Positions 2,273 through 24,164 of a stretch of 64,000 bases of DNA are shown here, in pieces. Position numbers and translations under genes: made by a program. Source of the DNA: a virus (Duplodnaviria; Heunggongvirae; Uroviricota; Caudoviricetes; Straboviridae); the IMG/VR virus record IMGVR_UViG_638275429_000001, positions 87,740-151,739 of that record, one strand, 5' to 3'. Within the stretch, counting starts at the first letter, position 1. The number at the start of each line of letters is the position of its first letter. Below the pieces are notes generated by a model that had not been told where the DNA came from, ran no database searches, and saw nothing but the letters and a program-made list of their open reading frames with translations.

Positions 2273-3672
2273 TGGTCGCAAATAACATCAAAAACCACAT
2301 CTCCGATTCAGCCGAATCGGTTAACTACACTGGTGATAACTGGCCGGCGATTGTGACTACGGTCGCCGATGCTCTAGATCGAGTAGCTCCGTGGGCTATT
2401 ATCGATAACGGGCTGCCTTTGGCTACTACCCAGATTGCTGGTATTATCCGAATCGCTACTACTGCTGAAATGCAGGCAGGAACAAGTGCCAACACAGCGA
2501 TCACACCTGCTTTGTTGAAGTTGGCGATGGAAACCCCGCAAGCTTCCGAGACCATTGTCGGGAATACGCGATACGCAACAAACGCTGAAGCTTTAGCTCT
2601 CACGTTAAATACAGCAGCGATCACACCAGCAAATCTTGGGTATGTTTTCGCGAATAAGGCTGCAACTGAATCAGCTCGCGGCACAATGCGTATTTCGACC
2701 CAGGCGCAAGCAACCTCTGGGACTGATGATGCGACAACCATGACGCCACTTAAAACTAAGTTGGCTATCCAGGCTCTAAGTCAGGCATGGGGAACTGCAA
2801 CTGAATCAGCTCGCGGTGTTGTTCAGATGGCTACCGTAGCGCAAGCATTGCAAGGAACATTGCGTGACGGTTTTGCGATAAGCCCATACACTCTGTCAAA
2901 AATGGCTGGAACTGAATCTGCTGCTGGGATGTTTAAAATTGCATCTAATTCGCAAATTCTTGCCCTCGCTGATAACACCGTTGTCGTAACACCAGCTAAA
3001 TTAGATATTTTGAAAGCAACTGCATCGCAATTGGGTCTTGTCAAACTATCAGGCGTATCAACTGCTGCTGCTAATACTGCCTTGGCCGCATCTGCGCCAG
3101 TACTTTACACTTCAGGCGGTATAATCACTGGTGATGTTACTTTCACTGGCAACATGCAAGGAATTCAATGGTCGCGAAATACGGATATGGCGCATATCGT
3201 TTTCAAAAATGATTCCAACGCCGATTCTAACTCGTTTATGCAATTCTGCGTTGGTGATGACAACAACGAATATTTCAGATGGGTAAACCGTTTTAGCGGA
3301 TCTGACAATATTATGGCGACGCTTCGTCCAGGTGGTCATATGTGGCTGGCTGGTAATATCGATGTCAACGATTTCTATATTCGTTCTGATCGCCGTCTTA
3401 AGCATGGTTTCAAACCTATTGAAAATGCGCTTGATAAGATCGACCTCTTGAACCCGGGCACTTATCACAAACAATATTCATTGACCGACGACCGAATTGT
3501 CGGCTTGGAAGCTGGTATTTTCGCACAAGATTTCCAGAAGGCTATGCCTGAAGGCGTAAGATCATTGGAGGATGGAACGTTGACAGTTTCTCCTATGGGT
3601 GCGATAGCATTTTTAATACAATGCAACAAAGAACTTAAAGCACGTCTCGAAAAATTAGAGGGTATAAAATGA
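2272..3672 (+). CDS. gp12: Short tail fibre gp12 with C-terminal S74-like intramolecular chaperone
   Basis: N-terminal HISDSAESV..WPAIVTTVADAL and ATESARG/ATxAE repeats as in T4 gp12. C-terminal RSDRRLK..IENALDKI motif. Confidence 0.92.
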   Translation: MVANNIKNHISDSAESVNYTGDNWPAIVTTVADALDRVAPWAIIDNGLPLATTQIAGIIRIATTAEMQAGTSANTAITPALLKLAMETPQASETIVGNTRYATNAEALALTLNTAAITPANLGYVFANKAATESARGTMRISTQAQATSGTDDATTMTPLKTKLAIQALSQAWGTATESARGVVQMATVAQALQGTLRDGFAISPYTLSKMAGTESAAGMFKIASNSQILALADNTVVVTPAKLDILKATASQLGLVKLSGVSTAAANTALAASAPVLYTSGGIITGDVTFTGNMQGIQWSRNTDMAHIVFKNDSNADSNSFMQFCVGDDNNEYFRWVNRFSGSDNIMATLRPGGHMWLAGNIDVNDFYIRSDRRLKHGFKPIENALDKIDLLNPGTYHKQYSLTDDRIVGLEAGIFAQDFQKAMPEGVRSLEDGTLTVSPMGAIAFLIQCNKELKARLEKLEGIK

Positions 3673-20843: not shown

Positions 20844-21212
20844 TTACATGAGGCGGAGCCAAAACCCTTTCTCATACTGCATTTCGAGCTGGCATGGTTT
20901 TTCGGATTTTGCGTCTCCTACAACCTCGATGACCAAAATCTTGCCAGGATTTTCACGGCACCATTTACGCCAGTCCTTGTTATTTTCTTTGTTGTACCGT
21001 TGGATGAAGAAGAGGCGTGTCATTTCACCCAGATAACCCATCGTTGGCTTACCTTTCATCGGTGGTACCGAAATTCCTGGATAATTGCTGGTATTGTCAT
21101 TGAATTTGCTAATGACTTTATCAGCGAATTCTGCTTCGCGGGTCCAATCGTTCATGGTCACGAGGTACTTATCTTCGAGGATGGCACTCGAGAATCGTTT
21201 CATGCAATTCAT
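20844..21212 (-). CDS. Hypothetical protein (122 aa)
   Basis: ATGA-type overlap with the upstream ORF; same strand as the early block. Confidence 0.7.
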   Translation of the reverse strand: MNCMKRFSSAILEDKYLVTMNDWTREAEFADKVISKFNDNTSNYPGISVPPMKGKPTMGYLGEMTRLFFIQRYNKENNKDWRKWCRENPGKILVIEVVGDAKSEKPCQLEMQYEKGFWLRLM

Positions 21213-21733
21213 TGGTTTTTCTCCATTTGGTATATTGCTTTACGCATCAATTTGATTTTCATTTCAGTCGGGATATGATTATCGTGAACGAACTGATCGA
21301 GTTGCGCTTTCTGGCTATTTGCACGAGAGGTAACAATTACAACGTTTTCCATTGTATACCCTTCCTTCGGATTGACACGCTCAATTGAACGGCCTGAATC
21401 TTTGGGGAATATTGTACCAGTATACGCGCATGATTCGGTATGCATTAACTCTACAAATTGCGGGAATGTAATGCGCCATTCAAGTCCGCGTTCTTGGCAA
21501 CCAGTGACTTTCACCTGATATGCGTGTAAGTACCGCTTATTTTTGCTGATGAAATTCATCATCTCGATTTGACGAGCAACTTCTTCTCTTTCAGCTTTAA
21601 CCTGTTCTTCGCGACGTTTGATTTGTTCGTCACGCAAAACCTCGAAGTGATGCTTTTTCGGCGGCTCAGGTGCTTTAACAGAAGCTGAGGCGATAGAGGC
21701 ATAACGAGCTAGCATTTCTGAACGAGTGGACAT
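21209..21733 (-). CDS. Srd-like protein with HNH-like (His-Me finger) C-terminal domain
   Basis: CAYTG..SIERVNPKEGYTMENVVIVTSRANSQK resembles the T4 Srd family as recalled. Has its own sigma70-type promoter. Confidence 0.6.
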   Translation of the reverse strand: MSTRSEMLARYASIASASVKAPEPPKKHHFEVLRDEQIKRREEQVKAEREEVARQIEMMNFISKNKRYLHAYQVKVTGCQERGLEWRITFPQFVELMHTESCAYTGTIFPKDSGRSIERVNPKEGYTMENVVIVTSRANSQKAQLDQFVHDNHIPTEMKIKLMRKAIYQMEKNQ

Positions 21734-21800: not shown

Positions 21801-22109
21801 TCACTTTTTGTTGAATTTGTTCAACAAAGCTTCGAGTGACTCTCCGGTAGCCGGAGTCACCTTAAACCGACTGTCGGTATGCGGCCGCGCTTTTCCGCGT
21901 TTCGGATTCACATAGTGCTTACGGAAAACAACCGGTTCACGAGTCTCAAAGTCCAGTTTCGCCCCGTCAACATAGGCTACGATGTCAGGCACATCAACCG
22001 CGCGGATGTCGTACATCCGGCCAATCTGGACGTAACCCTGCTTCATTTCACGAAACATAAAGTGGATTTGCACTTTTTCAGCATTTGACAGTTCAGTAAA
22101 TTTGCGCAT
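21801..22109 (-). CDS. Hypothetical protein, possible helix-turn-helix (102 aa)
   Basis: TAATG coupling to the upstream stop. LSNAEKVQIHFMFREMKQGYVQIGRMYDIRAVDV has an HTH-like pattern. Confidence 0.6.
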   Translation of the reverse strand: MRKFTELSNAEKVQIHFMFREMKQGYVQIGRMYDIRAVDVPDIVAYVDGAKLDFETREPVVFRKHYVNPKRGKARPHTDSRFKVTPATGESLEALLNKFNKK

Positions 22110-22576
22110 TATTTCAGTCCCCATTTTTCGCCCATGTTGTAGTATGCAGTCATATATTTGACAGCCCGCTCAGTATCTTTAGGTGTGACACCTTTCAAGC
22201 GGCGCAGGTCGGCATTGTTGCGCAAATCATAACGCTTGCACTTGACAGACCGGATGTCACTATTGACACGGATCAGGTAACATTCGTAACTTTCGCCATC
22301 GCGTTTAGTCACATTGTCTACCAACTGCGCCATGGATGAGCCGAATAACGTGTTGATGTCGCGCAAACCTTCTTCGCGATCATCATAGCAATCTTCAACA
22401 ACATCATGAAGAACACATAGGATCTGGACGTCCAATGCTTCTCGGTCTCGACGAGCCCAGTGCATGAGTTGCAATGGGTGCAGAATATAAGGCGCGCCAC
22501 CTTTGTCAAACTGACCGGCGTGACGATTGGTTGCGTATTGAATGGCCTCAGCCAGATGTTGTTGGGTGTATTTCAT
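22109..22576 (-). CDS. HD-domain small alarmone hydrolase-like (Mesh1/SpoT-HD) protein
   Basis: HAGQFDKGGAPYILHP, VLHDVVED, FGSSMAQLVDNVTK and KRYDLRNN motifs. Confidence 0.85.
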   Translation of the reverse strand: MKYTQQHLAEAIQYATNRHAGQFDKGGAPYILHPLQLMHWARRDREALDVQILCVLHDVVEDCYDDREEGLRDINTLFGSSMAQLVDNVTKRDGESYECYLIRVNSDIRSVKCKRYDLRNNADLRRLKGVTPKDTERAVKYMTAYYNMGEKWGLK

Positions 22577-22820: not shown

Positions 22821-23159
22821 TTAGTCGCTCAATTTACCGAATGGAATCTGTTCAACGAAAGCCCATGCGGCATGGTAAACTGTTGCACCTGGTGTTTCAG
22901 ACATAAAGACCGTGTCGACCGGTGCAACAACTCGAAATAGAGTTGGCTCGCCGCCTATAGAGCGCGCTGCTCGTCTGGCATATACTTTAGCAAGGCCACG
23001 ATCTTTGGTGAAAAACACACGATCCAAATTCTTTTTCCGACCCTTCTCGGAAATCGTGTCCGTCGCTTCGGGTGGAAGAAGCATATCACCTTTAAGGCCG
23101 AGTGTACAAGAGCCATGGTAAAACTCGACATATTCGTCTTTGCAATGGATTGTTCTCAT
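22821..23159 (-). CDS. Arr-like (H-Y-E clade) ADP-ribosyltransferase-fold protein (112 aa)
   Basis: AAGGAG SD before ATG 23159. FYHGS..GDMLLPP..RVFFT..LAKVYA..LFRV follows the Arr/PARP-type motif order. Confidence 0.65.
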   Translation of the reverse strand: MRTIHCKDEYVEFYHGSCTLGLKGDMLLPPEATDTISEKGRKKNLDRVFFTKDRGLAKVYARRAARSIGGEPTLFRVVAPVDTVFMSETPGATVYHAAWAFVEQIPFGKLSD

Positions 23160-23218
23160 GATATGCTCCTTGGTAGATTTGATGGGACCATAATAATCCA
23201 TAGTCCCACCATTGTAAA

Positions 23219-23980
23219 CTACTCTTTTATGAATTGTTGACGCTGATTTTTGAGCAATCTCGTTTTGATTTTCTCGGTGCATAGACGAACACGGCGCATT
23301 TTGCCGGGGTCAGCAATGTATCCGTGTTCAAAAATCACTATCTTCGAATATTTGTCATTGTGTTGAGTTTCTGAAAATGTAATAGGCGCTTCAGCAGCAT
23401 AAACAAATGTGTCAACCTGTGCATTAAGTAAAATTCCGCCAGACGAGATTATGGAAATTGCAGCTCGGTCATATTCGCTTTTTGCGATTTTTACAAATTT
23501 GCTTACATCAAATTCTCGATCGTCGACAAATCGCCCATACATAAAACACAAAATAGCTTTTGCGTACCACTGTGCTTTGTTGTAATCGATACCATCGTCC
23601 GGATAGTCACGAAGTTTGGCAAGATGCGCAAGAGCCATTTTCTTCTTGAACTCACGCCTGAGTTCAATTAACGCATCAATAACATCGCGCAAACTATGCC
23701 CATTGAGATTGAAATCACCGAAATGATCGCGCAAAATCATCGGATACATCAAAGAATAGGATGATTCCCATATTGGGCCATCGAAAACTACCGGGTAAGT
23801 TGTCGCAGTGTACAGCAAATCGTGAAACGGTGTTTGAAATCGTTCATCACGATGTTTTATGATGTGCCGAATAGGCGAATTTGGGTCGGTGAACATTTTC
23901 TTAGCGTCTGCCACAAGCACTTTGTCTTTGATGGCCTGGCTATTTTCCAAAATCATATTTTCTAATGTTGATTTCAACAT
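23219..23980 (-). CDS. Degenerate minimal family-B DNA polymerase-like protein (palm and fingers only)
   Basis: GAGGA SD. SYSLMYPMIL, LIELRREFKKKM, QWYAKAILCFMYG and LLNAQVDTFVY occur in PolB motif A-B-C order. Confidence 0.65.
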   Translation of the reverse strand: MLKSTLENMILENSQAIKDKVLVADAKKMFTDPNSPIRHIIKHRDERFQTPFHDLLYTATTYPVVFDGPIWESSYSLMYPMILRDHFGDFNLNGHSLRDVIDALIELRREFKKKMALAHLAKLRDYPDDGIDYNKAQWYAKAILCFMYGRFVDDREFDVSKFVKIAKSEYDRAAISIISSGGILLNAQVDTFVYAAEAPITFSETQHNDKYSKIVIFEHGYIADPGKMRRVRLCTEKIKTRLLKNQRQQFIKE

Positions 23981-24103
23981 AATTTCCTCACTCTCGTTTA
24001 GGACAATTCCTTAATTATTCGGAACCGCGTGATTGATTCGGATTGCGTCTTGTGCAATCATTATTAACTCTGTTGTATGGTGTATCATCAGGTTGATAGT
24101 GAC

Positions 24104-24164
24104 ATATTATCATATAAAACGTTGATTGTAAACATAAAACAAAGGGAGCCCTGGGGCTCCCTTT
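24104..24164 (-). promoter_or_regulatory. Terminator plus early promoter cassette
   Basis: hoc terminator aaagggagcc-ctgg-ggctcccttt (24141-24164) followed by TTTACA-N17-TAATAT with TGn extension. Confidence 0.8.

Follow-up and report, generated by a model that had tools for sequence, protein, structure and literature searches.

A stand-alone palm-fingers protein, very probably derived from family B DNA polymerases, in Aeromonas phage 44RR2.8t and other T4-like phages

UL8 of herpes simplex virus (HSV) is an inactivated family B DNA polymerase (PolB). Other PolBs known to have been exapted or inactivated are the F12 protein of chordopoxviruses (PMC4304020), the C-terminal half of Pol epsilon and archaeal PolB2 (PMC7544198). 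The present analysis concerns a 253-amino-acid (aa) open reading frame (ORF) with an ATG start, located on the minus strand of a 64,000-nucleotide stretch (hereafter the window; positions 87,740 to 151,739 of IMG/VR record IMGVR_UViG_638275429_000001) of Aeromonas phage 44RR2.8t, a T4-like record of 173,591 bp. An earlier note, made from the sequence of the window alone, had described the product as a minimal, apparently catalytically dead PolB homologue and had proposed that it acts as a decoy for defences that sense phage polymerase, as a binder of nucleotides or primer-template, or as a repurposed nucleotidyltransferase. The protein, called here mini-PolB, is very probably a PolB-derived, stand-alone palm-fingers protein that is expressed early and is under selection. 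The surveys of PolB diversity that were consulted describe no palm-fingers-only family of ~250 aa in T4-like phages, and a literature search by ORF names, PHROG identifiers and accessions found nothing.

The structure of mini-PolB was predicted with AlphaFold2 (AF2) from a 12-sequence alignment, which gave a model with a predicted local distance difference test score (pLDDT) of 88.5 and a predicted template modelling (TM) score (pTM) of 0.82. Foldseek searches against the PDB returned at least 48 matches at E ≤ 1e-3, all of them to PolBs with a probability of 1.0. VIA-align, a method independent of Foldseek, was run against 48,161 chains and its top 15 matches comprised 14 PolBs and HSV UL8 (9ut1_C, Z 7.9); the best was 5mdn_B (Z 10.6, root-mean-square deviation 4.8 Å over 205 residues, model residues 11-231 against 347-650), RB69 gp43 and phi29 polymerase reached Z 9.3 and Z 8.8 respectively, and unrelated helical proteins appeared from Z 5.7 down. 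In the ESM Atlas, TM scores by query of 0.65-0.71 over 207-231 residues were obtained to PF00136 clusters. The BFVD search listed family members from phiAS4, 65.2, Klebsiella PMBT1 (TM 0.72) and Vibrio VAP7, followed by UL8s and viral PolBs. Of the top 30 rows from the AFDB clusters, 21 carry names, all of them of polymerases or helicase-polymerase proteins, and nine are unnamed; no cellular stand-alone family of comparable size is among these 30. According to the model, mini-PolB consists of palm and fingers only: an N-terminal domain, an exonuclease and a thumb have no room, because palm and fingers take residues 11-231 and leave just the helix at 236-251. A PolB palm/fingers fold lacking both exonuclease and thumb is what the earlier note had read from the letters, and the AF2 model bears this out, the top matches of Foldseek, VIA-align and the ESM Atlas being all PolB-like.

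PolB ancestry is also supported by sequence comparisons. A profile of 12 family members searched against 177,635 distinct PDB sequences gave 24 matches (E 0.026-0.87), all of them family B polymerases, including Sso PolB1, D.Tok Pol, Pol alpha and Pol epsilon, and the alignments follow one shared motif register. A PDB sequence search with the single protein yielded nothing relevant, and in Pfam the PolB families PF00136 and PF20286 matched none of the 12 members; the Vibrio member P0008 weakly matches archaeal PolB1 models of NCBIfam (E 0.0018). Mini-PolB is a full-length member of PHROG 7204 (E 2.8e-140, residues 1-252 aligned to all 252 profile positions) and matches phrog_7439 more weakly. 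The latter corresponds to the RB43/Slopekvirus branch of the family; phrog_7204 and phrog_7439 match each other and both are without function annotation.

The five motif strings quoted in the earlier note are all present and stand in the PolB order (residues 74-83, 101-115, 136-149, 181-194 and 210-221). Their register with respect to D.Tok Pol (1qqc) is S74/D404, Y79/Y409, R108/R460, K112/K464, K141/K487, Y148/Y494, Q188/D540 and D190/D542. In the motif A-like segment, S74 occupies the place of the catalytic Asp and Y79 is the counterpart of the sugar-stacking Tyr. The first fingers helix motif IDALIELRREFKKKM, lying in the model helix 97-123, aligns with LLEERQKVKKKM of D.Tok Pol (R460/K464), with L104 and R108 invariant and K/R112 conserved. 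Motif B is in register with K487, N491 and Y494 of 1qqc, mini-PolB having a Cys at position 145, and hhalign places motifs B and C on gp43B of the phage's own polymerase (pairwise E 0.007). In the motif C-like hairpin (model strands 183-188 and 191-195), D190 is the second Asp of the DTD signature and Q188 stands at the first. The next strand (residues 207-221), which contains the fifth of the strings quoted earlier (KYSKIVIFEHGY, residues 210-221), is probably, judging by its position, the equivalent of the KxY (KKRY) strand of PolBs; there HNDKY of mini-PolB stands opposite GKKRY of gp43B.

Conservation was read from an alignment of 17 members showing 18-38% identity to mini-PolB, with one exception at 86%. 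L104, R108, D190 and H207 are invariant in the 17 members; K141 gives way to Arg in a single member, Asn occupies position 145 in 13/17, position 148 is aromatic in all, position 79 is always Tyr or Phe, and K/R112 and G181 are well kept. In the D.Tok Pol register, the fingers Arg/Lys, the motif B residues and the Tyr correspond to those that bind the incoming nucleotide in PolBs such as RB69 gp43 and the KOD-type enzymes, and D190 corresponds to the catalytic Asp of motif C. The column of the motif A Asp contains Ser, Thr, Cys, Gly or Ala in 16 members and Glu in the remaining one (P0010, from contig L008), the Y-P part of the motif being retained. The earlier note had singled out two substitutions, Ser for the motif A Asp and Gln for the first Asp of DTD, and both hold for mini-PolB in the D.Tok Pol register. 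Across the family they fare differently: the motif A Asp is lost in 17/17 members, whereas the first DTD Asp is kept in 3/17 (the Vibrio members and P0010), position 188 being Glu in another 2/17. The Vibrio branch (P0008 and P0015, phages 1.244.A and 207E48.1) has a canonical DTDG followed by a 19-residue insertion, and P0010 combines its motif A Glu with a D-V-D in motif C; on this showing, P0010, P0008 and P0015 may stand nearer than the others to an ancestor that was active. An acidic residue occupies position 209 in 16/17 members and, as far as the alignment goes, H207 and D/E209 are a family-specific feature that opens the strand after motif C.

The ratio of nonsynonymous to synonymous substitution rates (dN/dS) between the 44RR/31 and phage 25 groups is 0.059-0.070 at a dS of about 1.1-1.3, which reveals strong purifying selection and not the neutral decay of a pseudogene. 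Homology searches, whether started from the single sequence or from the alignment, recovered only close relatives and the Vibrio branch, and a related-locus search among viral contigs recovered no relatives; the wider family was gathered by exhaustive HMMER searching and by tblastn against phage records. The former, covering 1.84 billion representatives, found only 11 relatives of 223-299 aa. With mini-PolB as query, tblastn gave 44 phage records (Aeromonas, a few Vibrio, and IME13), full-length in 41/44; with the distant member P0009 it gave 197 records from Klebsiella slopekviruses, RB43/RB16/Lw1 and phages of Cronobacter, Enterobacter and Citrobacter, full-length in 176/197. About 220 phage records from several genera carry an intact ORF of the family, and mini-PolB behaves as an accessory gene in a variable region, in single copy in its own genome according to the family profile search. 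The homologue of Raoultella phage vB_Rp_M26a (H125, PQ187642.1:145697-146545) is annotated as 'DNA polymerase'; the other records examined carry hypothetical proteins.

The replicative polymerase is encoded elsewhere, as the earlier note had expected for a T4-like genome: a whole-genome search with PF00136 detected one locus only, a split gp43 outside the window. gp43A (498 aa) contains DLTSLYPS and stops within the first fingers helix; gp43B (a 431-aa ORF from an upstream TTG) begins before KILINSLYG and carries YIDTDS and KKRY. The break falls at the fingers tip, and the two frames overlap by ~70 nt. Mini-PolB cannot be the replicase, because it is without N-terminal domain, exonuclease, thumb and motif A Asp and an intact split gp43 is present; a true templated polymerase is also unlikely because motif A Asp and thumb are absent. 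A recent duplication of gp43 was considered and rejected, since BLASTP shows no similarity of mini-PolB to gp43A or gp43B, hhalign finds nothing in gp43A and the family profile misses gp43. The idea that mini-PolB complements the split gp43 was likewise dropped: the family is equally common in RB43- and Slopekvirus-type phages, and similarity to gp43 is lacking.

The features of the locus are collected in Table 1. The orthologue in phage 31 is PHG31ORF171c, a hypothetical protein with 98.8% identity to mini-PolB of 44RR, whose gene is flanked by hoc and gene 24 within a group of short genes on the minus strand; the assignment of the upstream gene as hoc comes from the annotation of that phage. 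Upstream of the mini-PolB gene, the hoc terminator, an early promoter and the ribosome-binding site (RBS) follow each other in this order, and past the terminator a new transcription unit begins, to which the gene belongs. The second early promoter, abutting its stop codon, falls inside '31repeatB', a repeat_region annotated in phage 31. The pattern GTTTACA-N16-18-TANNAT agrees with T4-type early promoters and recurs at seven sites of the window, each on the minus strand, where chance would give 0.16; these seven sites are probably the early promoters of the region.

Table 1. Features of the mini-PolB locus and of the predicted protein. Positions refer to the window unless marked as genome; residue numbers are those of mini-PolB.
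Feature	Position	Strand	Basis
Mini-PolB coding sequence, stand-alone PolB-like palm+fingers protein (44RR ORF171c family; PHROG 7204)	23219..23980	-	ORF list, PHROG match, AF2 model, dN/dS
Motif A-like segment SYSLMYPMIL, residues 74-83	23732..23761	-	register vs 1qqc D404/Y409
First fingers helix motif IDALIELRREFKKKM, residues 101-115	23636..23680	-	aligned to LLEERQKVKKKM of D.Tok Pol
Motif B-like segment AQWYAKAILCFMYG, residues 136-149	23534..23575	-	aligned to QxxxKxxxNSxYG of PolBs; hhalign to own gp43B
Motif C-like beta hairpin GGILLNAQVDTFVY, residues 181-194	23399..23440	-	aligned to LYADTDG, LYGDTDS
Strand after motif C HNDKYSKIVIFEHGY, residues 207-221	23318..23362	-	invariance; model strand 207-217
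Model: N-terminal helices; strand 64-74 (motif A strand); helix 78-86			AF2 model
Model: two fingers helices 97-123 and 133-151; then helix 159-179			AF2 model
Model: hairpin 183-188/191-195 (motif C); strands 207-217 and 220-223; single C-terminal helix 236-251			AF2 model
Shine-Dalgarno GAGG, 6 nt before mini-PolB ATG	23986..23989	-	sequence read
T4-type early promoter GTTTACA-N17-TAATAT of mini-PolB gene	24104..24133	-	promoter scan and pattern search
Intrinsic terminator of upstream hoc gene, 10-bp stem, 6 GC pairs, T-run	24141..24164	-	terminator scan
Second early promoter GTTTACA-N17-TATTAT, abutting mini-PolB stop codon, serving the downstream gene	23190..23219	-	promoter scan and pattern search
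GTTTACA-N16-18-TANNAT sites	23190, 24104, 40506, 45692, 46500, 48548, 54299	-	pattern search
Downstream 112-aa protein (PHROG 2110), putative ADP-ribosyltransferase	22821..23159	-	own early promoter, AAGGAG RBS
HD_4 domain protein (E 1.5e-8; phage 31: metal-dependent phosphohydrolase)	22109-22576	-	same early block
DUF2774 protein	21801-22124	-	same early block
srd-like 'decoy of host sigma70' homologue	21209-21733		near HD_4/DUF2774 genes
Split replicative polymerase gp43A/gp43B	genome 19996-22717 (G000:C1; L002:285-3006)		PF00136 match

The gene directly downstream encodes a protein of 112 aa. A longer ORF of 153 aa (start 23282, overlapping mini-PolB) is probably an over-extension that is not used, because the promoter and the AAGGAG site precede the internal ATG. 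The 112-aa gene occurs in 605 T4-like phage records at 60-100% identity, most of them without mini-PolB, with Escherichia, Klebsiella, Acinetobacter, Aeromonas and Vibrio as hosts. By eye its product looks Arr/Tpt1-like (YHGS ... VFFT ... E), and two GenBank records label a homologue as putative ADP-ribosyl transferase, an identity that is unconfirmed. The protein has no Pfam match and no PDB sequence match; its AF2 model is poor (pLDDT 59) and Foldseek gave nothing at E ≤ 0.001, Tpt1/KptA, PARP16 and pertussis toxin being among the weak rows returned for this poor model. Conservation of the two neighbours differs widely: in 44RR versus contig L004 the small protein shows 88% and mini-PolB 25% identity, versus phage 65 the values are 93% and 27%, and versus the RB43-like contig L005 they are 69% and 23%. 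The two genes adjoin each other in the Aeromonas 44RR/25/AhFM11 types and L004 and also in the RB43/Slopekvirus types (with RB43, L005 and L013), as they do in Miro and GomatiRiver_11, and adjacency is seen in 10/10 records found by both searches. A distance of 42 kb separates them in phage 65, and in Dhakavirus the 112-aa gene adjoins gene 41 and dmd without mini-PolB. On this distribution the link is suggestive and not obligatory, and the 112-aa gene is context and not an established partner. In RB43 the small gene (L007:3501-3816) is recovered by tblastn as two pieces, residues 1-19 and 26-105, with the annotated coding sequence starting at 3532; its N-terminus may contain a frameshift or a sequencing error.

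Other neighbours vary between branches. Within a few genes of distant mini-PolB members on metagenomic T4-like contigs, genes for NADAR and NAMPT (L009), NAMPT (L013) and SIR2 (L014) are found, and a Band_7 gene lies directly downstream of mini-PolB in L009 and L014. In the RB43/Slopekvirus branch (L005, L007, L013 and L015), a conserved Zeta-toxin-like P-loop protein of ~277 aa is encoded directly upstream of mini-PolB and transcribed divergently; the same loci hold NT5C/HAD 5'-deoxyribonucleotidases, also upstream, and an Rnl2 RNA ligase a few genes downstream. As to the NADAR genes, AdfA of RB69/T4 is presumably the NADAR-type gene 61.2 and would then belong neither to the mini-PolB family nor to that of its neighbour. 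AdfA is reported to be an orphan antitoxin-like enzyme acting against DarTG1 (PMC11257639).

With regard to function, we consider it moderately probable, from the pattern of conserved residues, that mini-PolB is a functional early accessory protein of PolB descent, a predicted nucleotide binder made of palm and fingers and acting as a pseudo-enzyme or as an altered enzyme. A PolB ancestor would have been cut down to these two subdomains, and selection would have kept the part that holds the nucleotide: the fingers Arg/Lys for the triphosphate, the Lys, Asn and aromatic residue of motif B, the sugar-stacking Tyr and the motif C Asp. The palm strand that follows would have gained a family-specific His-x-Asp/Glu at its beginning. 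The vestigial active site may then bind a nucleoside triphosphate or a related nucleotide, possibly together with a nucleic-acid 3' end, either without catalysis or with altered chemistry, and the protein might serve in host takeover or counter-defence early in infection. Binding of a nucleotide or 3' end is favoured over a surface decoy, since the invariant residues belong to the nucleotide site. Several observations weigh against this explanation. The query has no match in Pfam even at E ≤ 10, no family of Pfam, NCBIfam or PADLOC is significant for it, and the family profile does not detect gp43 in the phage's own genome. Additionally, PolBs bind a nucleotide tightly only in the presence of primer-template DNA, and it is mainly the thumb, missing in mini-PolB, that holds this DNA. 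None of the members has the motif A Asp, which counts as one of the two universal metal ligands, and with a net charge between near neutral and mildly basic (pI 6.2-9.0) they offer no strong hint that DNA is bound.

The same residues could instead belong to an active minimal nucleotidyltransferase or nucleotide-hydrolysing enzyme, in which His207 and Asp/Glu209 replace the motif A Asp, Asp190 together with His207 and residue 209 binds metal, and R108 and K141 hold the triphosphate. We regard such an enzyme as unlikely. In its favour, H207 is invariant and 209 acidic beside the invariant D190 and R108 and the near-invariant K141, a handful of invariant polar residues at ~20% overall identity is typical of enzymes, and the motifs of P0010 (Glu at motif A, D-x-D in motif C) and of the Vibrio branch with its DTDG fit an active site. 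The piPolBs, moreover, are active despite loss of the first motif C Asp (PMC7544198), so that Gln188 is not in itself inactivating; the description 'catalytically dead' in the earlier note is plausible for templated DNA synthesis. On the other hand, mini-PolB has no thumb with which to grip a primer-template, the nearness of H207/D209 to D190 is read from topology only, and no member is fused to, or regularly paired with, a DNA-binding module. We also know of no PolB that works without the motif A Asp. A Ser74-His207-Asp190 triad was rejected, position 74 not being conserved. Another explanation, distinctly unlikely in our judgement, takes mini-PolB for a structural pseudo-polymerase, a scaffold or decoy whose contacts with other proteins (for example those of the replisome or a host defence sensor of phage polymerase) matter and whose old active site is unused. 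Exapted inactive viral PolBs provide the precedents, namely F12 (PMC4304020) and UL8, the latter through the structural matches of VIA-align and BFVD. An accessory gene in a variable region that evolves far faster than its neighbour (25-27% against 88-93% identity in the same phage pairs) fits variable host factors. Yet the invariant residues are nucleotide-site residues and not a surface patch, and a sensor decoy is expected to be gp43-like, whereas mini-PolB has no detectable sequence similarity to gp43A/gp43B beyond the motifs. Among the three roles proposed earlier, that of decoy consequently fits least, the invariant R108, D190 and H207 and the near-invariant K141 pointing to the vestigial active site.

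The neighbourhood raises a further, quite doubtful possibility: that mini-PolB is a targeting or regulatory partner of the adjacent putative ADP-ribosyltransferase, to which it would present a bound nucleotide or nucleic-acid end, or which it would regulate. Its gene directly precedes the 112-aa gene in two branches that diverged deeply, the two are adjacent in all ten of the doubly listed records, and NADAR, NAMPT and SIR2 genes occur near more distant members. This adjacency may, however, reflect inherited synteny of the hoc-srd region; the genes are far apart in phage 65, the small gene occurs without a PolB-like gene in hundreds of phages (e.g., Dhakavirus), each gene has a separate early promoter, and the ADP-ribosyltransferase fold of the neighbour is unconfirmed. 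That mini-PolB is a decaying polymerase remnant, or that its motifs resemble those of PolBs by chance without homology, is extremely improbable. The absence of PolB Pfam matches in the members and the marginal single-sequence E values to PolBs (0.026 at best) would fit it, but this reading is refuted by selection and fold: dN/dS is 0.06-0.07, the ORF is intact in about 220 records with its own promoter and RBS in 44RR, and the fold is predicted confidently with PolB-specific structural matches in four libraries. A bolder reading, which is speculative and improbable as it stands, would make mini-PolB the smallest known PolB-derived enzyme: a module of ~250 residues with a centre rebuilt from Asp190, His207 and Asp209, acting on a nucleotide or nucleic-acid end and not copying DNA, maybe together with an NAD+-using neighbour in an early counter-defence or nucleotide-signal module.

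An evolutionary identity is hereby given to PHROG 7204 and PHROG 7439, two families found in over 200 sequenced T4-like phages, among them therapeutic phages of Klebsiella and Aeromonas. In this family a polymerase appears to have been reduced to its nucleotide-binding core, which is under the strongest constraint while the remainder evolves fast, in contrast with UL8, F12 and the Pol epsilon C-terminal half, which are known as large scaffolds. If mini-PolB binds or processes nucleotides, it would represent a new kind of phage early effector and a natural minimal scaffold on which palm and fingers can be studied alone; if it is a scaffold, the list of exapted polymerases would be extended to bacteriophages.

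Compared with PolBs of PF00136 (RB69/T4 gp43, 5mdn of P. calidifontis, 1qqc, Pol alpha and phi29 Pol), mini-PolB has in common the palm and fingers fold, the order and register of the motifs and a KxY-like strand, and like them it retains the triphosphate-contacting Arg/Lys, the sugar-stacking Tyr and the second DTD Asp. Unlike them, it has only 253 aa without N-terminal domain, exonuclease or thumb, has lost the motif A Asp and has gained the invariant His207; most members also lack the first DTD Asp, and the protein stays below every Pfam/NCBIfam threshold. The piPolBs of pipolins resemble most mini-PolB members in having no first motif C Asp (PMC7544198), but they are full-size, active polymerases with motif A Asp, exonuclease and thumb. 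UL8, F12, the C-terminal half of Pol epsilon and PolB2 are, like mini-PolB, derived from PolBs, have lost canonical catalytic residues and are kept for another role beside an active replicase. They preserve, however, the whole multi-domain architecture around a degenerate nucleotide site, whereas mini-PolB is a single module in which the nucleotide site is the most conserved part. To the unannotated PHROG 7204 and 7439, the present analysis adds their descent from PolBs, the pattern of conserved residues and the genomic surroundings.

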